Below are positions 19,268 to 63,574 of a stretch of DNA of 64,000 nt, in pieces. Numbering within the stretch: position 1 is the first letter of the stretch; each line of letters opens with the position of its first letter. The stretch is from an uncultured Candidatus Saccharibacteria bacterium (GTDB taxonomy: Bacteria; Patescibacteriota; Minisyncoccia; Phycocordibacterales; CAIZLB01). The notes beneath the pieces are model-generated. The model was not told where the DNA came from and did no database searches. It saw only the letters and a list, made by a program, of their open reading frames with translations. Position numbers and translations under genes: made by a program. The stretch covers positions 106,849 through 170,848 of the forward strand of contig CAYJDM010000001.1 in the NCBI GenBank assembly GCA_964368945.1, read 5' to 3'.

Positions 19268-20779
19268 TCACAGTTTCTTTAGATATTCAATAAGGGAGTC
19301 GATATGGATGGTTTCCTGGACCCGGGTCTCCACATGGCGGACCGTAACGCTATTTTCGATGGCTTCCTTCTGGCCTACGAGGAGGATATACGGAACGCCT
19401 AGCTTTTCAGCCCCTTGGAGCTGGGCGGTGATCTTGTCCTTGCTCAGGGCCTGATGGACCGGGATCCTGGCAGTTCGGAGCATTTCGAGGATGGTGAGGC
19501 TCTTGAGCTTAGCCTCATATCCGAGGTGGATGAAATAGAATCGGATATCTTCCTCGACGATTATAGTGCCGCCTTTGCCATTGCCTGAGGCCTTCGCGTC
19601 CTTATCGTCCACGAGAATATGAGCGCCGATGGCAGGGATTTCCTTTTTGCCAAAAGCCTTCCGCGCAATGCTATTGTATCGCTCGCCGATGCATAGGAGG
19701 CTTCTCTTTTCCGCACCCGTATCCTTTTTGCCCTCCTTTGCGATGCCGATGATCTGAAAGACCGTTCCAGTCGAGCAGTTTCGAGATCCCGTCAAAGCCT
19801 CATTGATCATATATGGAAGGCCGAGAGATTCGAGGAATTCCAAGACTTCTCGGAAATGGGTTCGGCTTTCTTCCGAAAGATAGTTCACCGTCTTCGGCGC
19901 CTCATCGCTCCATGGCTGGAGTCGGTCGTCCTGCGATACTGCGAGAAGAAGCGGATCTTTTTTATACATCTGTCGCAAATCCGCTGGCAATTCGCCCAGA
20001 TGCTTCTTATAATATGCGGCGAATTCCTTGGCGAATCGGGCAAATGAATCCTTGTCTCCGACAGAGTTGATTTCAACCATCAATTCCATATCGGGATTAT
20101 GCTCCTTGAGAATGACATATGCGGTTTCGATGACGACGGCATCAGCGATGCTCTTTGAATTGCCGATGATATCCACATTGAAGATATGGCCGGTCTTTTT
20201 CGCTTTTTCGGCGAATGTATTTCCCTTGAGCGGACCGCTGAAGCAGATCGATGGCGGCTGATTGAGATCCTGCATCTTTTTATCAATGTAATTGCGCAAG
20301 ATAGCAACCTTCTCCTCGAGAAAGGCATCGAATGTAAGCGTCTCGGCAGAATCGCCCTTCTGGCTCTTGTCCTTGAGCGACTTTACCTTTGTGATATCTG
20401 ATTTTTCAACCTCTGATTCGAATGGCACAAAGCCGAAATGCCGCGCTGTCTTGAGGCAGTTCAGATGGCCCTTGTATATATGCGCAGGGACCTGGAATTC
20501 ATGCTTGGTATGCTTGCCGGCCTTTGTGGGCTTGAATGATCGGGCAGGGACGGCATGCTGGTTCTCGGCATGGTGGTTGCTCTTGGAAGTCTTTGAGGCA
20601 TTCTTTCCAGCTGGCTTTGCGGCGATAGCAGGCTTGGGTTTTGCCTTGCTTGCGGGCTTTTTAGGGTGGGCAGAGGCGGCTTTAGAAGTCGTCTTTTTCG
20701 CCGTTTTAGGCGCTTTTTTGCTCATTTTGGTATGGGCTTTTGAGGTAAAAATTGCTAAGAAATCGTGTAAATCCCGCAT
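19268..20779 (-). CDS. hisS: histidyl-tRNA synthetase-like class II aaRS with Lys/Ala-rich N-terminal tail
   Basis: INSVGDKDSFARFAKEFAAYYKKH resembles the HisRS INSLG region; CIGERYNS resembles a degenerate GGGRYD motif 3; C-terminal anticodon-binding-domain pattern LGVPYILLVGQKE; roughly 100-aa K/A/P-rich histone-like N-terminus. Confidence 0.5.
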   Translation of the reverse strand: MRDLHDFLAIFTSKAHTKMSKKAPKTAKKTTSKAASAHPKKPASKAKPKPAIAAKPAGKNASKTSKSNHHAENQHAVPARSFKPTKAGKHTKHEFQVPAHIYKGHLNCLKTARHFGFVPFESEVEKSDITKVKSLKDKSQKGDSAETLTFDAFLEEKVAILRNYIDKKMQDLNQPPSICFSGPLKGNTFAEKAKKTGHIFNVDIIGNSKSIADAVVIETAYVILKEHNPDMELMVEINSVGDKDSFARFAKEFAAYYKKHLGELPADLRQMYKKDPLLLAVSQDDRLQPWSDEAPKTVNYLSEESRTHFREVLEFLESLGLPYMINEALTGSRNCSTGTVFQIIGIAKEGKKDTGAEKRSLLCIGERYNSIARKAFGKKEIPAIGAHILVDDKDAKASGNGKGGTIIVEEDIRFYFIHLGYEAKLKSLTILEMLRTARIPVHQALSKDKITAQLQGAEKLGVPYILLVGQKEAIENSVTVRHVETRVQETIHIDSLIEYLKKL

Positions 20780-20928
20780 ACATTACCATATATGGGGGTA
20801 TGGCACAATTATTTGGGTGTTTTAGGGGCTTTTTCACAGAAAAAACGAAAAGCGCATGCTATCATGTCCCCAGATTGCGGCACTATAAAGTTCCTGCATT
20901 CCTACCGAAATCCAGACAATCCATACCA

Positions 20929-22098
20929 ATGAAATCGATCTTTGCAAAAAAAGCGGGCTCCGTGCCCGCATTCTCTCTCTGTCTCTTTGGGCTGCTCGGC
21001 AATGCGCATGCTCAAGCCTCGAGTATCGTTATCTCCGAAGCTCCTGAAAGGATGGTATCGCAGAACTTTCGCGTCGATTCCGGAGGTTTTCCTCTGGTTC
21101 CTGTCGCTGCATTCACTGTCACATCATCAGGCGATGAAAATATCATGGCAAATTTCGATGTCGACATTGTCGGCTCGGCTTCCGTCAGGGTCATCTATCT
21201 CTTCGAAGGCGGCAATCAGATCACTGCCGGCGGCGCATCTGATCAGCATAGCGACAATCTCTTCATGGGGGTCAGAATGATGAATGGCGATAAGCGCACA
21301 TTCACCGTCATGGTGCAGTTCTTCAACGATGTGGCGACCGTTAGTCCGCTGGCTCAGGCTCGTGTGACGAATTTCATGTATTATAATTCGAATTTTCATC
21401 TCACGAGCGCTTCGGGCACGATAGTCGGACCCACGATGCATCTTTTCGACAAATGCGCGCAATGGTCTGTCGCGATGCCTACATCGATAGCGATCGATAC
21501 GTCCGCATCGAAGGTTACTGCATCATTTCCGCTCAATGCCAAAGCCTTGGCGGGAGCTGTCGTCATGCCGATCGCATCCGACTTCAGCGTCAAATTCGTC
21601 GATATCGAAACAGGAGAACTGCATGCGGCGACTGAAGTCTTGGTCGCTGTCAGTCCGCCTGGCCAGATTGCCGATGGATCTGTCAAACCGGTAACCGTAA
21701 CCGCTTCATTGTCGGCGCCAAGCATCAAGCCCGATGGCTTGTATCATGCGCGGATCGAAGCTATCAAATGGACGATTGCACAAAAGCAGACGATCCAGAC
21801 ATGGGGACTTGACCGCATGGTCACAGGCATAACGAATGCTGTTCCCTCGGAAAAAAACAGCATTGGGATTATCGGCTCAAGGCTCAGGCCCGTGGATCAG
21901 ACTCTTGTAATGGCATTCACCGCTCCGCATCAGAATTTCTTCGTCGAATCTTCCGCCGATCTTTCTGGTTGGACGGAGTTCAGTCCGCCGATTGCGGTCA
22001 GCGAGATCGCCGGCTTGCCCAATGATGCGAAAGCATACCGAATGGTATTGCCATTGCAGCAGGAGCGTCGATTCTATCGGGCCACGCTGCGGCCTTAG
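20929..22098 (+). CDS. secreted hypothetical protein, paralogous to the 49040 gene
   Basis: Signal peptide MKSIFAKKAGSVPAFSLCLFGLLGNAHA; beta-rich S/T/V/A composition; C-terminus DLSGWTEF...RFYRATLRP; the track ORF begins upstream at 20752 but the Met at 20929 gives a canonical signal peptide. Confidence 0.55.
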   Translation: MKSIFAKKAGSVPAFSLCLFGLLGNAHAQASSIVISEAPERMVSQNFRVDSGGFPLVPVAAFTVTSSGDENIMANFDVDIVGSASVRVIYLFEGGNQITAGGASDQHSDNLFMGVRMMNGDKRTFTVMVQFFNDVATVSPLAQARVTNFMYYNSNFHLTSASGTIVGPTMHLFDKCAQWSVAMPTSIAIDTSASKVTASFPLNAKALAGAVVMPIASDFSVKFVDIETGELHAATEVLVAVSPPGQIADGSVKPVTVTASLSAPSIKPDGLYHARIEAIKWTIAQKQTIQTWGLDRMVTGITNAVPSEKNSIGIIGSRLRPVDQTLVMAFTAPHQNFFVESSADLSGWTEFSPPIAVSEIAGLPNDAKAYRMVLPLQQERRFYRATLRP

Positions 22099-22158
22099 CG
22101 CGAAAATCAGAAGCCGGTCCTCCTTGCGGGGACCGGCTCTTCTACTTTCCAAAAAAAA

Positions 22159-22914
22159 CTATTGCGGCAAATTTACACCCTGAAACTCATCTGTCGATCC
22201 GGGCGTCAGGCCGAAATGCTTGAAGGGAAGAAGGCGGACAAGGGCGCGTCCTTCAATGGCCGTTCGGTGCAGGGCTCCCCAGATTCGTGAATCTGAGCTG
22301 ACCTCTCGATTGTCTCCCATGACGAAATACTCATCGGATGCGAGAGTTCGGTCCGCCTTGCGGCTGCTGGTGAATTTGACATATGGCTCGGTCGATTTGA
22401 AGCCATTGGGATTTTCTTTATTAAAAATGGTAACCGAAGTGCCATCAACGACGACGCGCTCGCCAGGAAGTCCGATGATTCTTTTTATAAAATACCTGCC
22501 ATCATTCGTTGGCGCATCAAAGACGATCACTTCGCCTCGCTCAGGTGCGCGGACCTGATATGAAAGCTTGTCGACAATCACATAATCGCCATCCTCGAAT
22601 GTCGGCTCCATGGAGCTGCCGTTCACGAGGAAGGGGTCGATGACGAAAAGCCGCAATAGGATGATTGCCACCATAAAGACGATGATCTTCGTCCAGAAAT
22701 GGTCTTTCTTAGGCTTTTTATTGCGAGCATTGACCGCGGCCGGCGTCTCGGATGCCATCTCAGCATCGATGTCTATATCGATGGGCTGGCCATTTATTTT
22801 CTCAAGCGGCTCGCCTCCATTTGGGTTAAAGGATTCACTCATATTTTTGCCAAGTATACCATATGGACACCGCATGGATACCGCGATAACCGCAATATCT
22901 GCATGGTTTTCCAA
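22159..22914 (-). CDS. lepB: signal peptidase I
   Basis: Ser box GSSMEPTF; Lys box and VMGDNREVSSDSR; N-terminal TM. Confidence 0.85.
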   Translation of the reverse strand: MENHADIAVIAVSMRCPYGILGKNMSESFNPNGGEPLEKINGQPIDIDIDAEMASETPAAVNARNKKPKKDHFWTKIIVFMVAIILLRLFVIDPFLVNGSSMEPTFEDGDYVIVDKLSYQVRAPERGEVIVFDAPTNDGRYFIKRIIGLPGERVVVDGTSVTIFNKENPNGFKSTEPYVKFTSSRKADRTLASDEYFVMGDNREVSSDSRIWGALHRTAIEGRALVRLLPFKHFGLTPGSTDEFQGVNLPQ

Positions 22915-34346: not shown

Positions 34347-34787
34347 ATGAAATTCGCAATCAAATTCAGACTAACATCAGCCGCGGCACGATTAGGGATG
34401 CTCGCGATCGTATTCGGATTCGCACTCTCGCTATTCGTACCGCACCATGATGCATTGGCTCAGTCAGGAGTTCTCAAGACCAAATTCACCATTCCTGCAT
34501 ATTGCAATCAGCCCCAGACTGAATGCGGGTGGGTGCAGCTGGTGCAGCTCGGAACAGAAATCCTTTCATTCGGCGTATATATCGCCATTCTCGGAGCGAC
34601 AGCGGTTATCGTCCTTGCTGGATGGAAAATCCTGACAGCTGGCGGCGATGAAGGGGCGGTCAAGACGGGCAAGAAAATGCTTTGGGCATCTATCGTCGGA
34701 ATCATCGTGACCATGTCGGCATATATGCTCGTTCAATTCGTTCTGACGAAGCTCGGCGTGATATCCGGAATTCGTTTGTTCATTTAG
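34347..34787 (+). CDS. VirB2/TrbC-like T4SS-pilin-domain protein, paralog A
   Basis: Signal peptide, a short Cys-containing segment, then a two-helix module (LAGWKILTAGGDEGAVKTGKKMLWASIVGIIVTMSAYMLVQFVL) shared with the next five genes. Confidence 0.55.
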   Translation: MKFAIKFRLTSAAARLGMLAIVFGFALSLFVPHHDALAQSGVLKTKFTIPAYCNQPQTECGWVQLVQLGTEILSFGVYIAILGATAVIVLAGWKILTAGGDEGAVKTGKKMLWASIVGIIVTMSAYMLVQFVLTKLGVISGIRLFI

Positions 34788-34825
34788 TTTGCAGTTTGAT
34801 ATACTTATTAAAAAAGCGCACAATC

Positions 34826-35827
34826 ATGGCCAATATAACCAAAACAAAACAGGAGAGGGTACCAATCTTATTCGCGCTCGGTCTTGTTCTGGTCTTGGCA
34901 TTGATTGCGATCACGCTTGTCGCTCCGAACGCAAAGCTGGCATTCAGAGGCGTCATTCTGGATGGAAAAGCACAAGTTCCTGATGCATGGAAAGTTGGCG
35001 CTACGGCCGATGCTCCGTTGGGCTCAATCGATAATCCGCTGCCTTACGACGGTGACAATAGTTTTTTTGACGAATCTGTATATGTGATCAATCCGGATGC
35101 CGATCAATTCAGCTCTGTAAACCTGGGCGATTATTTCAGCAATGAAGGCTATGTCGATGGGCCATTGTCAAATTCTTCCGTGTCATTATCTTCCTCCAGG
35201 AATACCTATTATGATCCTTTCAATACGTATTTTTCTGGCGGCAATTCGTCAATGAGCTCAACGGAGAACTTTTACGCTGGATCAGCCGTCACCACTCCTT
35301 CTACTGCTTCTCAGGCGCAATCAGCGGCAAATTCCGTGGGCAATGCGGTCAATTCGGCTTTTGGCTCGGTATTCGGCAATGGCACTGGCGGCGGGGCGGC
35401 TGGATCTGCTGGCACGGCGGGCACTCAGTCAACTGCCGGATCGGCTGTTTTGGCAGGAAATACTTCGGGCAATTTCTCGGCGCCAACGTCTGCAGCTGGA
35501 AAAAATACCGGCGTTAATAAAGCAGCGGCAACTGCGGTGAATTGTACCGGAACGGCATGCCAGTTCCAGAATCCTCTAGGAACGAAAAACAGCTCGCTGG
35601 ATATTTTTCTCAATAGCATCCTCGATGTCATCATCCTCATCGGAGGAATAGTCGTGGTAATCATGATCATCCTTGCTGGCCTCAAATATGTCACGGCTCA
35701 AGGAGATGAAAGCAAGATCGAATCTGCGCATAAGCAGCTTACATGGACGGTTGTCGGCGCAGGAATCCTCCTTGGAGCGAAAGTGATCGCTCTGGTCATC
35801 CAAAATACAGTCAAGGCTTTAACATAA
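34826..35827 (+). CDS. VirB2/TrbC-like pilin-domain protein with long low-complexity ectodomain, paralog B
   Basis: N-terminal signal anchor; roughly 230-aa S/G/A/T/N-rich region; C-terminal pilin module LAGLKYVTAQGDESKIESAHKQLTWTVVGAGILLGAKVIALVIQNTV. Confidence 0.55.
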   Translation: MANITKTKQERVPILFALGLVLVLALIAITLVAPNAKLAFRGVILDGKAQVPDAWKVGATADAPLGSIDNPLPYDGDNSFFDESVYVINPDADQFSSVNLGDYFSNEGYVDGPLSNSSVSLSSSRNTYYDPFNTYFSGGNSSMSSTENFYAGSAVTTPSTASQAQSAANSVGNAVNSAFGSVFGNGTGGGAAGSAGTAGTQSTAGSAVLAGNTSGNFSAPTSAAGKNTGVNKAAATAVNCTGTACQFQNPLGTKNSSLDIFLNSILDVIILIGGIVVVIMIILAGLKYVTAQGDESKIESAHKQLTWTVVGAGILLGAKVIALVIQNTVKALT

Positions 35828-49039: not shown

Positions 49040-50803
49040 ATGAACACCAAAAACCTGCTCATCGCCCTCGTGGCCATGATGGGCCTCTTAGGGATCCGGT
49101 CCGTACGGGCTGATCCCTCGCTCTCCGTGAGCGAAACATCAGCGCAACAAGCTGTTGCGCCTCGCAATGTCTGGATTCGCCCGCTCTTCGGTGCGCGCAA
49201 TACAGCGGTCTATCGGTTCGACGCGAAGAGCGCGAACGGCGCCTGCAAGGCGAACGAAGTCAAGCTGAGCATACCGCCAACGGCGCGTATTCCTGAACAG
49301 GTCTACGTATACGATGGCGGCGTTCAACTGGCGTCGGGACTTCCCGATCAAGCGAATCGAACTGTCAGCCTTAACGGGTTCTCACTCGACATTCCGCAAG
49401 GTGCCACAAAGACATTGACCATCCTGGCTGACTATCCGCGGACCGACTATGTCGGCCCCTACGGAGAGTACGCCCAGGTCGAACTCGTTTCTGTCGGTTA
49501 TGTGACGGCAACGAATGTCGCCGCAACGGCAACACCATCTTCAAAAATGGTCAGCGCCCAGCAGCGGCTCTTTCGCCCGATGTCCGCAAACATTGGCGTC
49601 GATGAGACCCCGACTATCATAGAGGAAAGGAACTCAAGCGGAGTCCTGACCTCAATGTACGGACTCTTCGTAGTCACGTTCAAGCCGGAAGGCGGCAGCC
49701 TGAGGTCTCCCCAAGCCGAGGATTTCGTTATTCTCGGTCAGGTCGGTGGCGATGAAGTGCCATGCCAAGTAAGGGTATACGGAAGTGTTTCAGAGGTTCA
49801 GAGTGACTCGACGTACTACGCCTATGTAGGCGGTAGCATTCCGCTGCGCATTGAAGGTGCAAACCATCAGCGCGCCGGCGCAGTCAGCTTCCGAATCGCA
49901 CAGGTTACCTGGGAAAATCATCCCAATTCACCTGCCATATCGACTCAGCAGACCTGGGGTCTGGAGAGTCTGACCACGGCAACGACGGCAGTTCTGCCGA
50001 AGCCGGATTCTGAATCATCGGTAACTGCTGGTCGGGTAGGAAAGGTGAGTACGAAGGTTTGGGATGAAATCACAAGTGCCTTGAAGCCCGTTGACGGTTT
50101 CAAGGGGCAAGTGGTTTCCGAAGGCGGACAGATTCTGATCTGCCCTACGAATCCCAACCAGAAGAAATATCTGGTATTCCCGACGACCCATCCGCTAGGC
50201 GGACAGATCGCTGAGGTTGACGTTGTCGTAACACCGACCACGATGACCCCCTCGGTCCGCGCCCCAGAAGACCTGTCTGTCGACTCGCGCGAGACGCTGG
50301 TGGAATATCCGCTGACCTCTCTCGTTAGGATTCCAACGTCGCAACAGACGATGCTGGCAAATTTCGAGGTTACTCTCGGAGGCCTCCACGTACAAGGGAA
50401 GGCGATCCGCACGGGTCCGCTTACCGCAAGCCTGCAGTTCTATTGGGATTGCGAAAACGGCGTCTCGAACGCTCCCGGTGCAAACCTGGACCGTCTGGAT
50501 CTGGCTCCCGGATATACGACCGGCAATATCGAGTCTCGTCCGATGCGCTTTGATCTCGGGATTGGGCAGGTGTCGAAAGACTCCAGCTCTTTCCGTCTGA
50601 ATGTCAAAGGTGCTCCAGGAGCGTACTCCGTGTACACTTCCAAGGATCTCGCATCAGGCTGGGTTCCTGCAGACTTCGAATACGGCCCGATGCAATCGGC
50701 CGCAGTCGGAGGCGCTACGATGACCGGCGAATTGCGGATTCCGTCCGCATCGCTGACAACGCCCGAAGCGCCGACCCGCTTCTTTCGATTGGAGGTGCGA
50801 TGA
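49040..50803 (+). CDS. secreted hypothetical protein, GC-rich, paralogous to the 20929 gene
   Basis: Signal peptide MNTKNLLIALVAMMGLLGIRSVRA; 587 aa, beta-rich; GC near 58 percent and CGC/CGG arginine codons, unlike the CGA-rich neighbours; C-terminus DLASGWVPADFEY...RFFRLEVR. Confidence 0.55.
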   Translation: MNTKNLLIALVAMMGLLGIRSVRADPSLSVSETSAQQAVAPRNVWIRPLFGARNTAVYRFDAKSANGACKANEVKLSIPPTARIPEQVYVYDGGVQLASGLPDQANRTVSLNGFSLDIPQGATKTLTILADYPRTDYVGPYGEYAQVELVSVGYVTATNVAATATPSSKMVSAQQRLFRPMSANIGVDETPTIIEERNSSGVLTSMYGLFVVTFKPEGGSLRSPQAEDFVILGQVGGDEVPCQVRVYGSVSEVQSDSTYYAYVGGSIPLRIEGANHQRAGAVSFRIAQVTWENHPNSPAISTQQTWGLESLTTATTAVLPKPDSESSVTAGRVGKVSTKVWDEITSALKPVDGFKGQVVSEGGQILICPTNPNQKKYLVFPTTHPLGGQIAEVDVVVTPTTMTPSVRAPEDLSVDSRETLVEYPLTSLVRIPTSQQTMLANFEVTLGGLHVQGKAIRTGPLTASLQFYWDCENGVSNAPGANLDRLDLAPGYTTGNIESRPMRFDLGIGQVSKDSSSFRLNVKGAPGAYSVYTSKDLASGWVPADFEYGPMQSAAVGGATMTGELRIPSASLTTPEAPTRFFRLEVR

Positions 50804-54323: not shown

Positions 54324-55055
54324 ATGGAACCAAATACACAACCAATTAAAAAAAACACGCTGGCAATGCCAATTGCCATTGTTATCGCAGGGGCACTCAT
54401 TGCTAGCGCGGTGATATACCGTGGCGGCAGTGTGCCTACGGCTGCGGACATGGCAAATCAGCCGCAACAGCGGGCGGCACAGCAAACAGGTGATCTTGAA
54501 CAAATGACACCAGTTACGTCTAAAGACCATATCCGAGGTGATGTGAATGCGCCGGTAAAAATAGTGGAGTATTCAGATACCGAATGTCCATTCTGCAAGG
54601 TGTTCCATACCAATATGAAAGAAATAATGAATACCTATGGCAAAGACGGAAAAGTAGCATGGGTATACCGACACTTTCCGATCGATCAGCGTCATCCTAA
54701 GGCACGAAAAGAGGCTGTCGCTTTTGAATGTGCGAATGAGTTGGGAGGAAACGACAAGTTCTGGGAATATGCCGATCGCCTCTACGAAGTCACTCCGGCA
54801 AACAATGGACTTGACCTCGCAGAGTTACCAAAGATTGCGGAGCATGTCGGCTTAGACAAGGCAAAATTCAACACCTGTCTCTCAAGTACGAAATACGATA
54901 AGCACATCCAGGATGAAGTCGAGAATGCACAGGCAACCGGTGGCAACGGAACGCCATGGAGCATTGTGGTCGGCAAAGACGGGAAGAAGTATCCATTGTC
55001 GGGAGCGCAACCAATATCGGCCATTAAACAGTTGATTGATCTTGCGTCAAAATAA
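54324..55055 (+). CDS. membrane-anchored DsbA-like thiol:disulfide oxidoreductase
   Basis: N-terminal TM; thioredoxin-fold active site VEYSDTECPFCKVFH; second conserved Cys region. Confidence 0.7.
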   Translation: MEPNTQPIKKNTLAMPIAIVIAGALIASAVIYRGGSVPTAADMANQPQQRAAQQTGDLEQMTPVTSKDHIRGDVNAPVKIVEYSDTECPFCKVFHTNMKEIMNTYGKDGKVAWVYRHFPIDQRHPKARKEAVAFECANELGGNDKFWEYADRLYEVTPANNGLDLAELPKIAEHVGLDKAKFNTCLSSTKYDKHIQDEVENAQATGGNGTPWSIVVGKDGKKYPLSGAQPISAIKQLIDLASK

Positions 55056-55057
55056 CT

Positions 55058-55603
55058 ATGATTCCTAATGCCTTACAAAAAGTATTCCGGAAACCAGGCC
55101 TTGTGGTTCTTGCACTTCTCGTAAGTGCGTCGGTGTTTGTGTTTGCCGTCTGGCTTCCAAATATCCGACTGGTTGCGGGCATAGTCAGCTCACCTGATGT
55201 ACCTTTTGTAAGCAAGATTCAATTGCCCCTCAGTCTCCTGGGTTCTATTGGAACAAATTTCACACCACTCTCCGCCACTTACACGATTGTGATCGCCATT
55301 CTCTTTGGAGTGTACATTGCAATGATCACTTACTTCCTGAAGCGTCGGATCAAAGAGGTTGGAAAAAGTGGAGTGGCAACTGGATTCCTGGGTATCGCAA
55401 GCGGAGTGTTGGGGGTTGGATGTGCCGCCTGCGGTTCATTTCTTCTCACAAGCTTAACGCTTGTCGGTGCTGGAGGAGTATTGACGTTTCTGCCACTAGG
55501 AGGCAGTGAGTTCGGAATCATTGGAGCTATCCTGCTTGCCGTGGCAGTCTACATGACTGCAAAAAAGATTGTTGATCCCCAAGTATGCAAAGTCGAAAAT
55601 TAA
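55058..55603 (+). CDS. polytopic membrane protein with intramembrane CxxC
   Basis: 181 aa, about 4 TM helices; GVGCAACGSF lies within a hydrophobic segment. Confidence 0.4.
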   Translation: MIPNALQKVFRKPGLVVLALLVSASVFVFAVWLPNIRLVAGIVSSPDVPFVSKIQLPLSLLGSIGTNFTPLSATYTIVIAILFGVYIAMITYFLKRRIKEVGKSGVATGFLGIASGVLGVGCAACGSFLLTSLTLVGAGGVLTFLPLGGSEFGIIGAILLAVAVYMTAKKIVDPQVCKVEN

Positions 55604-55607
55604 ATTT

Positions 55608-56051
55608 ATGAAAAAATTAATCAATAAAATATCATTCCAAACCCTCCATTATGCGATCCTGCTTCAGGCAGGAATCGCTATGGCGGGAAGTCTGTTCTTC
55701 AGCGAGGTCATGAATCTGCCGCCATGCGTGTTGTGCTGGTATCAGCGCATCGCCATGTACCCGATAGTGATCCTTGCCGCAATCGGCATCATTCGAAACG
55801 ACAGAAAGACATGCGTCTCGGTCCTCGCGCTTGCTCTGCCAGGCCTCGCGATATCGATCTACCACAACCTGCTTTATTGGAAGATACTTCCCGAAAGCAT
55901 TGCGCCCTGCATGCTCGGGGTATCATGCACCACCAAGTTCTTTGAATGGTTCGGCTTCATTACCATCCCACTCATGGCGCTTGTGGCGTTCATTATTATT
56001 AACGTGCTAGCATTTATTAGCTTAAAGAAAAATACATATGAAAAATCTTAA
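55608..56051 (+). CDS. disulfide bond formation protein B (BdbC/DsbB-like)
   Basis: LFFSEVMNLPPCVLCWYQRIAMYP matches the BdbC/DsbB N-terminal Cys pair region; four TM helices; second Cys pair CMLGVSC. Confidence 0.65.
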   Translation: MKKLINKISFQTLHYAILLQAGIAMAGSLFFSEVMNLPPCVLCWYQRIAMYPIVILAAIGIIRNDRKTCVSVLALALPGLAISIYHNLLYWKILPESIAPCMLGVSCTTKFFEWFGFITIPLMALVAFIIINVLAFISLKKNTYEKS

Positions 56052-56694
56052 AATCATTATTGGAATTGTGGTCGCTATCGTAATCGTCTTTCTTCTTGCC
56101 AAGGGAGGGTATAAAAAGACAGAAGAAAAAGTAGAGACTACAAACACCAGTCAGGCTTCAGCACTTGAAATCAAAGCAAACGACTGGGTCTCTGGAACAA
56201 GCACCGCAAAGGTCACTCTCGTTGAATATCTCGACTTCGAATGCGAGGCCTGCGGAGCATTTTATCCGATAACGACAAGGCTCAAGGAAGAATATAAGGA
56301 TGATATGCGACTGGTCATCAGGTATTTCCCATTGTCGGGGCATAAGAATTCTCGAACAGCAGCGCATGCAGTGGAAGCGGCCGGAAAGCAGGGAAAGTTC
56401 TGGGAGATGTACAATATTCTCTTTACGAAACAGTCTGAGTGGAGTGAAAAGCCGGTCGCAAACCAGGATCAGTTTGAAAAGTATGCGGTTGAAGCGGGCG
56501 TTATGGATATCGAGCAGTGGAAAAAGGATGTCGTGAGCGATGAGGTAAAAAAGAGAGTTGATGACAGCTACAAAGAGGCGGTCAGTCTCAATCTCCAAGG
56601 CACTCCGTCATTCTTCCTTGATGGAAAAAAGATAGAAACTCCGAGAGGATACGAATCGTTCAAGCTTCTTATCGAAAAGGCGAAAAATAATTAA
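56038..56694 (+). CDS. membrane-anchored DsbA/BdbD-like thiol:disulfide oxidoreductase
   Basis: N-terminal TM; VEYLDFECEACGAFYP CxxC active site; thioredoxin-fold length. Confidence 0.7.
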   Translation: MKNLKIIIGIVVAIVIVFLLAKGGYKKTEEKVETTNTSQASALEIKANDWVSGTSTAKVTLVEYLDFECEACGAFYPITTRLKEEYKDDMRLVIRYFPLSGHKNSRTAAHAVEAAGKQGKFWEMYNILFTKQSEWSEKPVANQDQFEKYAVEAGVMDIEQWKKDVVSDEVKKRVDDSYKEAVSLNLQGTPSFFLDGKKIETPRGYESFKLLIEKAKNN

Positions 56695-56707
56695 TCAATA
56701 CACATCC

Positions 56708-57334
56708 ATGGAACATACAACATCAGAAAACAAAGAAATCTTAAAATCTAAGAAGCCAAAGCCTCTTGTAATCGCAATTGGAGTTGCAGCAGCCCTCATC
56801 ATCGTGGCCTTATTCTTTGCCAAAGGACTCTTCGTTGCTGCAACGGTAAACGGTAGTTCGATCAGCCGTCTTTCAGTTATCAAAGAGCTGGAGAAACAGG
56901 GTGGGAAACAGGCTCTCGAAGCGATCATCGACCAAAAGCTCATCGAGACTGAACTGAATAAGAAAGGAATAAGCGCATCAAAAGAGGAAGTCGATGTGGA
57001 GATCGAAAAGATAAGGACTCAAGTCGCCGCTCAGGGGGGAACTCTTGAAATGGCACTCGCACAACAAGGACTTACAGAAGAGAAGCTAAGAGAGCAAATC
57101 ACCACTCAGAAGAAGCTTGAGAAGCTTCTGGCAGACAAAGTTACAGTCAGTGAGGCAGAAATAGATGCGTATATCAAAGATTCAAAGGCCGCTCTGCCAA
57201 AAAGTGTAAAGATGGAGGATGTTAGAATGCAGGTCGGTGCGCAGCTTAGGCAGCAGAAATTCCAATCCGAAGCGCAGCAGTGGGTTTCTGAACTGACGGC
57301 AAATGCTAAGATAAAGTACTATGTCAACTACTAG
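56708..57334 (+). CDS. membrane-anchored SurA-N/PrsA-like chaperone-domain protein
   Basis: N-terminal TM then a helical domain resembling the SurA N-terminal chaperone module (ATVNGSSISRLSVIKELEKQ...); no PPIase domain. Confidence 0.4.
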   Translation: MEHTTSENKEILKSKKPKPLVIAIGVAAALIIVALFFAKGLFVAATVNGSSISRLSVIKELEKQGGKQALEAIIDQKLIETELNKKGISASKEEVDVEIEKIRTQVAAQGGTLEMALAQQGLTEEKLREQITTQKKLEKLLADKVTVSEAEIDAYIKDSKAALPKSVKMEDVRMQVGAQLRQQKFQSEAQQWVSELTANAKIKYYVNY

Positions 57335-59703: not shown

Positions 59704-61026
59704 CTAATTGACGAAGATCTCCTTTCCTTTGATCGTCACCTTGTTTTTCAGGCAGCCTAGCAATTCTCTTTTCTCTATATCCGTACCAGATTTAAAGATG
59801 TACTTAGTGTAGTTCCGTATATCAATATCCTTAACCTCTACCGAATCTTTGATATCCAATAGCGCATGGTTGAATTTCTTCATTCTCTCGACTTCTAATT
59901 TTATCTTTTGATTAATGGATGTCTCGTCAAGATTGATTTTGTCCATAAGCTTTATAAATTGCTGTATCAAGTCAGGCTCGTTTATATACTCCCGCTTACA
60001 TTCTGGGTTGCGTGATCTGCTGCAGGCATAGTACACGTGGCGGTTAATTGATCCATCTTTCTGTTTCTTGAATTTTTCTTCCGCGGATATTCCAGAACCG
60101 CATAATCCGCAGTTCATGAGCTTGGTGAATGCGAATTCTTTGGGTTCTCCTGTGCGAAGGATCTGGCTTTTGATCTGAGCTTGAACCAATTCAAAAAGTT
60201 CTTTTGAAATCAATGGTTCGTGCTTTCCCGTATACCAGTTTCCGCTTTTTGCGGGATATTCAAATACTCCGTAATAAAAATGATTTTCCAGTAATGTATA
60301 GATATTCCCCAAACTCATATGCTTGTGTCCGCAAACAGTTCTGAAATTAAGATCAAATTTGAGCCAGTGAAAAATCTTTCTACCTGTCCATTTCTCGTAC
60401 GCAACCTTTTCAAATATGCTCTTAATGATATGTCCTCGCTCAGGATCAACGTATACCTGGCATTTCCTATCGATCCTTTTTTCGCTTAGATATCCGGTCG
60501 GCGCTCTACCTGGCCACAGCCCCATCTCGCATCTTGTGCGCATGCCTCGTTTTACGTTTATGCTCTTGTTGTCGTTCTCTAGCTTGGCTTGTGAACAGAG
60601 AATCATCAATAAGAACTTTTCATTCGGTGAATTTCTAAATTGTTGTCCGTATGTTCGTATTTCTGATAGCAGCCCTTGATCCATCAAATCTACGACAGAT
60701 CCAAGATCACCTGCATTTCTAGAAAGTCTGTCTGGCGCCCAAGTCAAGATTCCGTTGAATCTTTGTCTTCGTATATCTTCCAATAATTCTTTATAGACTG
60801 GTCTCTGTCCAGAATCCTTTGCAGAATGCGATTCTCTGCGAATATCAATAATCTCTAATCCGTCTCGTTCAGCTATTTGTAGCATTTCTTTTACTTGAGA
60901 CTCAATCGACAAAGCTTGTTTCTCATCTGACTCGGTACTCTTGCGGGCATATAAGCAATACTTAGTTTTTGCTTGTGGCACTATCTCCGCCATCCGTATT
61001 TGGGCATTTGTGCCTAGTTGTTGCAT
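59704..61026 (-). CDS. large serine recombinase (integrase)
   Basis: Resolvase catalytic domain YARKSTESDEKQALSIESQ with the Ser nucleophile; recombinase domain; zinc-ribbon CGLCGS...YYACSRSRNPEC; 440 aa. Confidence 0.8.
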   Translation of the reverse strand: MQQLGTNAQIRMAEIVPQAKTKYCLYARKSTESDEKQALSIESQVKEMLQIAERDGLEIIDIRRESHSAKDSGQRPVYKELLEDIRRQRFNGILTWAPDRLSRNAGDLGSVVDLMDQGLLSEIRTYGQQFRNSPNEKFLLMILCSQAKLENDNKSINVKRGMRTRCEMGLWPGRAPTGYLSEKRIDRKCQVYVDPERGHIIKSIFEKVAYEKWTGRKIFHWLKFDLNFRTVCGHKHMSLGNIYTLLENHFYYGVFEYPAKSGNWYTGKHEPLISKELFELVQAQIKSQILRTGEPKEFAFTKLMNCGLCGSGISAEEKFKKQKDGSINRHVYYACSRSRNPECKREYINEPDLIQQFIKLMDKINLDETSINQKIKLEVERMKKFNHALLDIKDSVEVKDIDIRNYTKYIFKSGTDIEKRELLGCLKNKVTIKGKEIFVN

Positions 61027-61389
61027 ATATTAATTAATGACAGACCACCCAACCTTGCATAGCTATGCAGAACAACCGAAACGTAGTGTGGTCGCGTCAG
61101 CTCTTAGCAAGAAGGTCTTTCAGCGATAGGATATGGATTAATAGCCCAGATTGGGCTATTATGAGCATTAACAACTTAATATTGCTGACCTAACCCTATG
61201 GCCTCAAACCCTAGGCATGGTCAAAATCCGCTAAAGTGTAAAAACCTCCTCGTCAGGAGTCACTTTAGCGGTCGTATCTGGAAACGGGTACGGGTTGAGC
61301 CGAAAGGTTCAATCGCAACTGGCGGGGAGATTTTTGCTATCTCACTTTTGCCATTTATCATAAAAGCAAAACAAAACCGCTAAAGTTTT

Positions 61390-62112
61390 ATGAATAATAC
61401 AAATACTTCTCCGGACGGAGAAGGTAAAAATAGCTTTAAGCAATTCTTTGCAAAGCATCCATTTTGGAGTTGGACAATCGCAGGATTCCTCATCAGTCGG
61501 ATTCCAAAATTAGAATGGGTATTACCAATATTTTTGGTAATAGGTTTATATCAGTTTCTCAAACACAAAGGTAATCGAAAGAAACAAAATGTTTCTGATC
61601 GAAAGGAAGCAGTGACCAAGGGTATGGAGGAATTCGTTGCTCAGATAAAACAACAGAAAGCTCTGACTCCAATCTCATCATCACTTGTTTTAGGGCCAAA
61701 GGAGCAGGCATTCTTAGAAGAAGAGACTGCATTGCAGGAAACAAGATCAGTTCGCCAATTCCGTAGCACGGGAGTTCGGGTTCGATTGATGAAAGGATTA
61801 TCGGTTGGTCAGTCTGGAGGCAGGGCAGAGAGTCATAAAGAATGGAGAATCTTGGATACAGGAAAACTTATCCTTACGAATAAGAAGTTGGTGTTTGACG
61901 GAGGGAAAGAAGATCGAACAATCCCTTTGGATAAGATACTTACGATCTCACCAATGCTCGACGCGATAGAGGTATCCTCATCTTCAAGAAGCGGATCAAT
62001 GGTATTTCCAGTTAAGAATCCGTTCATTTGGGCAACAACCATTCGCATCCTAAGCGCAGTCGAGGATCCTTTGAATTTGGGAGATCTCGATCTGAACGTA
62101 CAGGTCAAATAA
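61390..62112 (+). CDS. membrane protein with bacterial PH-like (bPH/YdbT-like) domain
   Basis: N-terminal TM helices followed by WRILDTGKLILTNKKLVFDGGKEDRTIPLDKILTI, a bPH_2-like pattern; lies between the integrase and terminase genes on the opposite strand. Confidence 0.4.
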   Translation: MNNTNTSPDGEGKNSFKQFFAKHPFWSWTIAGFLISRIPKLEWVLPIFLVIGLYQFLKHKGNRKKQNVSDRKEAVTKGMEEFVAQIKQQKALTPISSSLVLGPKEQAFLEEETALQETRSVRQFRSTGVRVRLMKGLSVGQSGGRAESHKEWRILDTGKLILTNKKLVFDGGKEDRTIPLDKILTISPMLDAIEVSSSSRSGSMVFPVKNPFIWATTIRILSAVEDPLNLGDLDLNVQVK

Positions 62113-63574
62113 AGTAAACCCGAGGAGGATTGGGAGGGTGCTCCGTGGCATCTAACACCAGGTTGGAAAACGCATCAGCGAGGTCATCGTGTTTCTCGAC
62201 CCCGAAGTGTACGATCTGGTTTATCAGCTCTTCACATCCTTCCCGTGGAAATTTCACTCGACCGCTTTTGATGAGATTGGCAGTGAGTACCAGACGGCTT
62301 CGCTTGTCCTGATTTCCTGGCCTTGTCGATCTGACTTTCGGAATGCCTTCGCTTATCAATTGCTGGGGCAATGCTTTCTGGTATGCGACATCTTCTATTA
62401 CGAAGGTTGGATACATTCGATCCGATTCTGCATACGATTTGTTCAGTATCTTGCATGTCTCGACAGTCTCGGGAAAAGTCATCCTCTTGTTGATAATCTT
62501 CGGCAGGATGTAAATATCGTAACTCGATTCGGTCTCAAACAATAGACCGGGAACCATGGCAGTGTAGTCAGCAGTGGCACTCTTGGAAATCGCCAGATCT
62601 ATTCCGATACGAGTTTCCGTATGAGAAACATATCTTCCGTATATGGGTATCTTCGCAGGAATCACATCGTAATATTGGATCCATTCTCGGTGAATGGCCT
62701 GCTCCTCATCCGATACGATGTTGAGCAGATATTCTCTCTGCCAAGCAAACTCATTTCCAGCCTTTTTCTTTTCCTTCTCGACTTCGGCCATGGATGGATA
62801 TTTTCCAAGCCAAAGAATCTGTCCGTTCTCAATCAACGGATATTGCTTGAATATTCCACCTATGCGATCCTTTTCAATATCTTCCTTTATTCGCATGAGT
62901 AAGGAATCTTCGTGCAAAAGGTTTCCAATAACAACGAGGCGGGTGTTTATGTCTCCTGTGGGAATGACTTCGCTTGTCAGCCACTGATAGGTCTTGTTTC
63001 GACCTTCTCTTGTCTTCGTGGAAGCGATATCCTCTACGTCGTCGCAGATGATGAGATCGGGCCGATGCTGATTGTGCCGAAGCCCTCGGATACTTTGTTC
63101 TGAAGATGCCGCAGTGATTCGAGCGTTTGAATTTGAGAACACAAGGGAAGAAGATCCCCATTCATCGGATTCCTCCCTGAACGGCCCGAGATCGTTCTTG
63201 AGCACAGCATTGTCTTCAAGCTCTCTTCGCAGGTTCATCATGTGCTGTTTGGCTTGGCTCTGAGTCTGGCAGAGGATCAGAACGAATTTCTTCTGCGGCT
63301 TCCCAAGAATTGCCCAGATAGGGTAGGAGGTGGTGAGGATTGTGGATTTCCCGCATCCTCGGAATGCCACGATGAAGAAGTTGCCGAGCTCCTCATTCTC
63401 GGTCAAGTTGAATATCTCATTGTGAAAATCCGCTGTTGCATATCTCACATAGTGGGCGAAATACAGATGGAAGAAATACCAATGGCTTTCCTTCGTTATC
63501 GCGGCTCTAATCTTTCGGTCCTGAATCATCTGATCCACCAGTTCCTGTGGAATTATCTTCGGTTTGTTTTCCAT
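62105..63574 (-). CDS. phage terminase large subunit
   Basis: ATPase Walker A AFRGCGKST; Walker B LIICDDVED; C-terminal RNaseH-like nuclease region IGIDLA...D; 489 aa. Confidence 0.7.
   Translation of the reverse strand: MENKPKIIPQELVDQMIQDRKIRAAITKESHWYFFHLYFAHYVRYATADFHNEIFNLTENEELGNFFIVAFRGCGKSTILTTSYPIWAILGKPQKKFVLILCQTQSQAKQHMMNLRRELEDNAVLKNDLGPFREESDEWGSSSLVFSNSNARITAASSEQSIRGLRHNQHRPDLIICDDVEDIASTKTREGRNKTYQWLTSEVIPTGDINTRLVVIGNLLHEDSLLMRIKEDIEKDRIGGIFKQYPLIENGQILWLGKYPSMAEVEKEKKKAGNEFAWQREYLLNIVSDEEQAIHREWIQYYDVIPAKIPIYGRYVSHTETRIGIDLAISKSATADYTAMVPGLLFETESSYDIYILPKIINKRMTFPETVETCKILNKSYAESDRMYPTFVIEDVAYQKALPQQLISEGIPKVRSTRPGNQDKRSRLVLTANLIKSGRVKFPREGCEELINQIVHFGVEKHDDLADAFSNLVLDATEHPPNPPRVYFI

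Follow-up and report, generated by a model that had tools for sequence, protein, structure and literature searches.

A predicted Ig-like domain at the C-terminus of two secreted, distantly paralogous proteins of a Candidatus Saccharibacteria bacterium

Results

Two secreted genes and their surroundings

The stretch of DNA analysed here (64,000 nucleotides from an uncultured Candidatus Saccharibacteria bacterium, hereafter the window) encodes two secreted proteins, A and B, that resemble each other in their C-terminal tails. The two genes, their coordinates and their N-terminal signal peptides, the latter read from the sequence, are as described in the initial annotation. In both proteins, a basic N-terminus is followed by a hydrophobic segment and an AxA-type cleavage site (MKSIFAKK...LLGNAHAQA/SS in A, MNTKN...IRSVRA/D in B). 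The start of gene A is supported by an identical protein and by a 67% identical orthologue (P0002), which begin at the same methionine. The parts of gene A are as follows.

20929..22098, forward strand: gene A (P0001), 389 residues, secreted, three predicted beta-sandwich domains (ORF and start codon)
20929..21018, forward strand: Sec signal peptide, residues 1 to about 30, cleavage region AHA/QA (MKSIFAKKAGSVPAFSLCLFGLLGNAHAQA)
21019..21828, forward strand: family core, residues 31-300 (hhalign to B, DSSP strands)
21796-21810, forward strand: invariant QTWGL, residues 290-294, end of the core (alignment)
21865..22095, forward strand: C-terminal module, residues 313-389, predicted seven-strand beta-sandwich (module HMM, AF2)
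21952-21972, forward strand: module motif S-A-D-L-S-G-W, residues 342-348 (sequence)
22069-22080, forward strand: module motif R-F-Y-R, residues 381-384 (sequence)

Gene A is flanked by a HisRS-like gene on one side and by a convergent signal peptidase I gene (lepB) and pth on the other. Three genomes share this order (HisRS-like, A-like, convergent signal peptidase I, pth), despite identities of only 37-68% between the A-like proteins at these conserved hisS-lepB loci.

Window, 19268-22914: conserved A-type neighbourhood (gene order)
Related contig L001, 8265-12024: same neighbourhood
Related contig L015, 5984-10613: same neighbourhood

The HisRS-like protein itself (window 19268-20779, reverse strand, 503 residues) has an N-terminal extension of about 100 residues that is rich in Lys, Ala and Pro and resembles histone H1. 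Its catalytic part may be divergent, since HGTP_anticodon is the sole Pfam domain listed for the orthologues.

Gene B lies directly downstream of clpB, a synteny also found in the related contig L002. Its orthologues (P0004-P0006) share 51-84% identity.

49040..50803, forward strand: gene B (P0003), 587 residues, secreted paralogue of A (ORF)
49040..49111, forward strand: Sec signal peptide, residues 1-24, cleavage VRA/D (MNTKNLLIALVAMMGLLGIRSVRA)
49115..50017, forward strand: family core, residues 26-326, homologous to A 31-314 (BLASTP, hhalign)
49949-49963, forward strand: QTWGL, residues 304-308 (alignment)
50018..50575, forward strand: middle region, about 185 residues, between core and tail (B-like alignment)
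50440-50575: upstream segment resembling the module, residues about 474-503 (shuffle test)
50576..50800, forward strand: C-terminal module, residues 513-587 (module HMM)
50639-50662, forward strand: module motif S-K-D-L-A-S-G-W, residues 534-541 (sequence)
50777-50788, forward strand: module motif R-F-F-R, residues 580-583 (sequence)

The middle region of about 185 residues is specific to B-like forms: it is conserved across 10 B-like proteins, with the motifs GQVVSEGG, TMTP, FYWDCE and PMRF, and is absent from A-like ones. Within B, the first strands of the module (VKGAPGAYSVYTSKDLASGW) show a weak similarity to the upstream segment VSNAPGAN..LDRLDLAPGY (shuffle p=0.009). It may be what is left of a strand pair that was duplicated, or have arisen by chance.

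With its short IF2, its T4SS pilin and a large number of orphan ORFs, the window has a gene content that fits Patescibacteria. The following features were also recorded, in the window and, for the last one, in a related contig.

34682-35827, forward strand: 381-residue ORF with a C-terminal T4SS_pilin/TrbC-like domain (Pfam)
54324-55055 and 56038-56694: two DsbA-like thioredoxins (Pfam)
55569-56051: DsbB (Pfam)
56708-57334: SurA-N-like chaperone ORF, following the Dsb cluster (54324-56694) (Pfam)
59704-61026, reverse strand: serine recombinase (ORF scan)
61187-61314, forward strand: LOOT RNA (RF03000), 82.8 bits (RNA family match)
61390-62112: orphan ORF (ORF scan)
62105-63574, reverse strand: terminase-like ORF, Terminase_6C (Pfam)
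L002, 27-1068: three tandem small T4SS pilin genes

The Dsb cluster and the SurA-N-like ORF are predicted to form an extracytoplasmic toolkit for disulfide formation and folding. The segment 59704-63574 may mark the border of a prophage or integrated element that includes the LOOT RNA.

A and B belong to one core family

BLASTP aligned residues 89-319 of A with residues 88-333 of B (E 5e-6, 23% identity), and hhalign of the two small orthologue groups aligned A 31-314 with B 26-326 over 274 columns (E 1.8e-5). The latter alignment takes in the post-signal strand, SSIVISEAPE in A and PSLSVSETSA in B; the similar post-signal segments that had been pointed out earlier thus fall within a homology of whole domains. 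In addition, the six closest sequences all keep QTWGL unchanged, near residue 290 in A and 304 in B. By these alignments, A and B are distant paralogues over their whole common length.

In word-indexed protein searches, A had a single orthologue and B had three. An exhaustive profile search over 1.84 billion representatives identified 162 relatives at E<=1e-3, matching profile positions of about 25-318. We define the core "QTWGL" family by this domain of about 290 residues (profile positions 25-318), which ends with Q-x-W-G-[LIF]; the core comprises two beta-sandwich domains and ends in QTWGL(E/D)xxxT. A and B each score above 440 bits against the core-family HMM, and matches to the core in genomic loci reach E values down to 1e-56. 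The identifiable relatives belong to MAGs of Candidatus Saccharibacteria, of Staskawiczbacteria and of further Patescibacteria, and each cluster is rare in databases, with one to three members. The relatives of A and B carry the name "hypothetical protein" or none in their sources, and neither A nor B matched any Pfam or NCBIfam family at E<=1.

Module-bearing members fall into two size classes, A-like (390-406 residues) and B-like (546-680 residues), and all the relatives with the module have a hydrophobic N-terminus. Other members of the core family stop after the core or continue into PG_binding_1, Kre9_KNH, CARDB, a dockerin, a hydrophobic tail or, in the case of P0107, a PEP-CTERM signal (PEPASLGILGAFALCLLRRRR). 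These C-terminal ends mark the family as presumably envelope-associated. The relatives concerned, most of them with PG_binding_1 (PF01471), have the same two-sandwich core as A and B and are secreted or envelope-associated but, unlike A and B, are without the module. PG_binding_1 is in turn absent from A, B and all 31 module-bearing proteins.

Six core-family proteins (P0042, P0071, P0103, P0106, P0115 and P0123) have almost the same hydrophobic sequence at their C-termini, LSASVG(I/V)ALRMVFGS(I/V)VSLFG(Y/F). This conserved tail may in its own right anchor the proteins in the membrane or serve as a sorting signal, and it looks more tag-like than the module of A and B.

The tail homology emerges with relatives of both proteins

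As defined from our alignment A6, the module covers 65-75 residues, contains S-x-D-[LM]-x-x-W and [FY][FY]R, and ends 2-8 residues before the stop. Its pattern consists of a strand pair, P..F.h[EQ].S.D[LM]..W, 35-45 variable residues often with D/N-G, [FY][FY]R, 2-8 residues and the stop. It was found in 31 of the core-family proteins examined, once in each and always with this terminal spacing. In the six-frame scan of the window, no credible ORF other than A and B had F[FY]R at its end, at most 12 residues from the stop.

Comparison of the two sequences is not significant by itself. Smith-Waterman alignment of the last 70-75 residues of A and B scored 28, versus 22.9 +/- 4.2 for shuffles (p=0.13), and hhalign of shallow family profiles of the tails gave non-significant E values of 0.029 and 0.016. 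For this reason, the homology could be demonstrated only with relatives. When modules of 10 A-like and 20 B-like proteins were aligned independently, hhalign matched the two groups over 70 columns with an E value of 8.7e-13 (probability 97.8%), as compared to 0.033 for a reversed-sequence control. The family of the window's A matched the other B-like modules (E 1.9e-6), and that of the window's B the other A-like modules (E 1.7e-10). Moreover, an HMM built from B-like modules alone picks up residues 335-388 of A, and cross-validated module HMMs match the correct C-terminal positions. With the HMM of alignment A6, residues 323-389 of A scored 64.6 bits and residues 513-587 of B 73.9 bits; these scores are partly circular because both proteins are in A6, the independent test being the A-like versus B-like hhalign comparison.

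At the level of sequence profiles, the tail homology between A and B is confirmed as real, and its recognition needed relatives beyond the two proteins. The shared tail noted in the initial annotation is indeed conserved and lies at the extreme C-terminus; at 65-77 residues, it is longer than the 50 or so suggested there. The search of relatives for the same tail, which had been proposed with it, yielded the 31 family proteins that end in the module.

Another explanation would be that the two tails converged by chance on the short motifs S-x-D-L-x-x-W and RF[FY]R, which recur in beta-rich proteins. The non-significant pairwise and shallow-profile values are in keeping with such a convergence, and S-x-D-L-x-x-W is also found in propeller blades of GH32/43/130. 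However, the deep profiles match across the full 70 columns, far beyond the reversed control, intermediate sequences connect the A-like and B-like modules, and the remainder of A and B is homologous anyway. We regard chance convergence as exceedingly improbable; for practical purposes, it appears refuted by the profile match between A-like and B-like modules.

The module is predicted to be a folded beta-sandwich

The last 69 residues of A, submitted alone to AF2 with a 30-sequence module alignment, were modelled as a beta-sandwich with a mean pLDDT of 90.1. The model of full-length A (34-sequence alignment; mean pLDDT 88.3, pTM 0.75) contains two sandwiches in the core, D1 at about residues 31-173 and D2 at about 176-300, the latter ending in QTWGL. 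Residues 1-22 of the signal peptide are disordered (pLDDT <50), and a linker of lower confidence (residues 301-310, pLDDT 64) leads to a seven-strand sandwich, D3, at residues 313-389, which corresponds to the module. Its strands are formed by residues 313-320, 325-332, 337-342, 349-351, 356-362, 368-375 and 382-387. Hence, the module is predicted to be the third Ig-like, folded beta-sandwich domain of A.

In the full-length model, S-x-D-L-x-x-W forms the turn after strand 3 of the seven; in the model of the module alone, the first strand is left out and the motif comes after strand 2. R-F-Y-R ([FY][FY]R) is located in the last strand. Since the two motifs map to a hairpin turn and to the last strand, they are probably determinants of the fold, not a recognition tag, their burial being judged from the strand positions.

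A Foldseek search of the PDB with the full-length model returned integrin alpha legs, Fabs, ClfB and an accessory domain of GH33 (E 2.7e-6 to 1e-4). Thus, A resembles tandem Ig-like stalks (integrin alpha thigh/calf, MSCRAMM ClfB, antibody domains) at the level of the fold, with probabilities up to 1.0, but TM-scores are only 0.14-0.26 and identities 5-14%. This likeness appears generic to the fold, and no family relationship follows from it. For the module alone, the best matches were generic Ig domains with E>=0.05. A search of PDB sequences with the module profile gave no significant relative and only motif matches to GH32/43/130 propeller blades (E>=0.02). The possibility that the module is a duplicate of the core domain D2 was also considered and found unsupported (hhalign E 0.011, probability 3.9%; BLASTP hint at E 0.006).

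Comparison with known sorting signals and domain families

A conserved tail shared by two secreted proteins had been read in the initial annotation as the hallmark of a sorting or anchoring signal, though one matching none of the known tags and followed by neither a TM helix nor a basic tail. The latter observations hold. The tail matches no model of LPXTG, PEP-CTERM, T9SS CTD or GlyGly-CTERM and is without a Pfam or NCBIfam model, and the lack of a TM helix or basic tail after the motif is borne out in the module-bearing proteins. None of these has an LPXTG motif or a C-terminal hydrophobic stretch, and neither NCBIfam nor Pfam gave a match for that signal. The PEP-CTERM/exosortase signal (PF07589) was not matched in A or B, and for GlyGly-CTERM/rhombosortase there was neither an NCBIfam match nor a C-terminal TM helix. 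LPXTG, PEP-CTERM and GlyGly-CTERM signals are, like the module, C-terminal on secreted proteins. However, such tripartite signals have about 25-35 residues, whereas the tail of A and B is a folded domain of 65-77 residues without signature motif, TM helix or basic tail.

The T9SS CTD (Por_Secre_tail) is, like the module, a small beta-sandwich of about this size, and it forms the very end of Sec-exported proteins. In Bacteroidota, many cargo proteins that are otherwise unrelated bear such a tag, which needs PorU/PorV and an outer membrane. In contrast, the module was found on a single family in the 519 kb of related DNA searched, occurs in Patescibacteria relatives and has no partner gene in the contexts seen, where PorU, PorV and SprA were absent as well. 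There is also no sequence match: PF18962/TIGR04183 gave none at E<=1 for A and B, and none at E<=10 for the modules alone.

Six of 30 modules weakly match (E<=10) DUF3999 (PF13163), at positions of about 143-193 of the 424 of this profile. The best of these matches, that of P0024 (E 1.2e-4, 21.8 bits), falls short of the 30-bit gathering threshold; P0021 gave E 0.04, and there was no match for A or B. Between the E-x-S-x-D-L-x-x-W hairpin and the FYRL strand, the DUF3999 segment keeps the register of the module, but it is internal in DUF3999 and C-terminal in the family of A and B. Many secreted proteins in Verrucomicrobia and Planctomycetes may carry terminal modules of the type S-x-D-L-x-x-W ... 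RFYR. A literature search on surface or Ig-like proteins of Patescibacteria, DUF3999 and LOOT RNA found nothing relevant.

In the related DNA searched, the module is confined to one family and has no dedicated partner gene nearby

The window and 35 related loci provided 519 kb and 4,212 ORF segments, in which all the matches to the module (12/12) were on core-bearing ORFs; this test covers DNA flanking family genes, and the profile is weak for divergent modules. The same 519 kb contain 25 core-bearing ORFs without module. No module-only protein was present among the 162 matches to the family profile. A word-indexed protein search with the module profile, in which 89 candidates were scored, gave one fragment of 73 residues at E 0.23, and a profile scan of genome contigs with close members of the B family gave no match. 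With a portability search of this limited reach, the module may also occur on unrelated proteins in other parts of these genomes.

A sortase-like or transporter gene dedicated to the tail had also been envisaged. Neither a sorting enzyme nor a dedicated transporter adjoins the module in seven contexts, which represent five distinct locus types. Likewise, a Pfam scan of about 40 ORFs of the window showed no sortase, exosortase or rhombosortase domain; it showed housekeeping functions, a PrsW protease, the Dsb cluster, a T4SS pilin and similar. The neighbours of module genes are housekeeping genes that differ between loci. Other family members are found between secY and adk or among sugar-metabolism genes. 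The former placement is that of P0157, a B-like, module-bearing protein of 610 residues encoded in the ribosomal-protein (spc) operon in two metagenome assemblies.

L013, 10001-11833: P0157, between secY and adk
L014, 6654-8486: P0157, same placement

For a secreted hypothetical protein, this is an unusual placement, which suggests that the gene is expressed constitutively and at a high level.

Overall, these results do not support the proposed sorting signal: the two proteins are paralogous, the tail is predicted to be a folded Ig-like domain, and in the DNA searched it was found on one family only. A portable sorting-signal reading of the module is not supported.

Discussion

We consider it likely that A and B are Sec-exported paralogues whose common tail is a terminal beta-sandwich domain kept by descent, not a portable sorting signal, and that a role of this domain in non-covalent interaction with the envelope is the most likely one. 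The two proteins would reach the cell surface via the Sec pathway and signal peptidase I. They would share the tail because they are paralogous along their whole common length, the terminal domain being inherited from their common ancestor; B-like forms would add an insert of about 185 residues between the core and this domain. No protein of the family, as far as examined, combines the module (present in 31) with PG_binding_1 (present in 48). On this basis, we propose for the terminal sandwich a role as an interaction domain, which would hold or position the protein on the cell envelope in a non-covalent manner and may stand in for the peptidoglycan-binding domain of other family members. The mutual exclusivity favours a role in surface retention and is the only hint for anchoring; it may also reflect clade structure alone. 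In addition, most modules are acidic, with a median pI of 5.1, unlike many wall-binding domains. Binding of a host or ligand, or self-association, would be equally compatible as a role for the terminal domain.

The extreme C-terminal position of the module in all 31 proteins would also be expected of a sorting domain, which counts against our preferred explanation. The module could then be a dedicated C-terminal sorting or secretion domain, similar to the T9SS CTD, which a specific machinery would recognise and might also remove. Its occurrence once per protein on Sec-exported proteins, its beta-sandwich of about CTD size and its mutual exclusion with another anchoring device, PG_binding_1, are consistent with such a domain, and the PEP-CTERM end of P0107 indicates that C-terminal targeting devices are swapped within the family. 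Nevertheless, the confinement of the module to one protein family in the 519 kb searched, the absence of module-only proteins among the family matches, the lack of a candidate sorting enzyme or transporter next to it in the contexts seen and of any Pfam or NCBIfam match to CTD or sorting models make a dedicated sorting domain rather unlikely. Furthermore, the relatives are found in Patescibacteria, for which neither an outer membrane nor a T9SS is known, and a sorting domain would explain nothing beyond paralogy, since the whole common architecture is shared.

It is similarly unlikely that A and B are the building blocks of an abundant array at the surface, either S-layer-like or fibrous, in which the terminal domain would provide self-association or lattice contacts. 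The tandem Ig-like domains argue for an array of this kind, as do the conserved positions amid highly expressed housekeeping genes (secY/adk, after clpB, hisS/lepB) and the persistence of synteny among orthologues with 37-68% identity. Against it, A and B show no similarity to known S-layer proteins, and each of their clusters is rare in databases. In a further reading, also doubtful in our view, the module would be a lineage-specific envelope-retention or targeting domain of one clade of Patescibacteria that attaches an abundant, possibly S-layer-like surface protein encoded in housekeeping operons to the cell envelope. SLH, PG-binding and T9SS-CTD devices would be its functional counterparts in that case.

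As it stands, the module is an ordinary, though undescribed, terminal beta-sandwich (Ig-like) domain, and our preferred explanation remains its inheritance within a family of exported proteins. The surface proteins of Patescibacteria/CPR are mostly unannotated, although the cells live attached to hosts. Defined here are a core domain of about 290 residues, in at least 162 protein clusters, and a C-terminal Ig-like module in 31 of them. Both are without a Pfam or NCBIfam model and could therefore become family models. If the module is indeed an attachment device that replaces PG_binding_1, it would provide a handle on how proteins are displayed in some CPR lineages.
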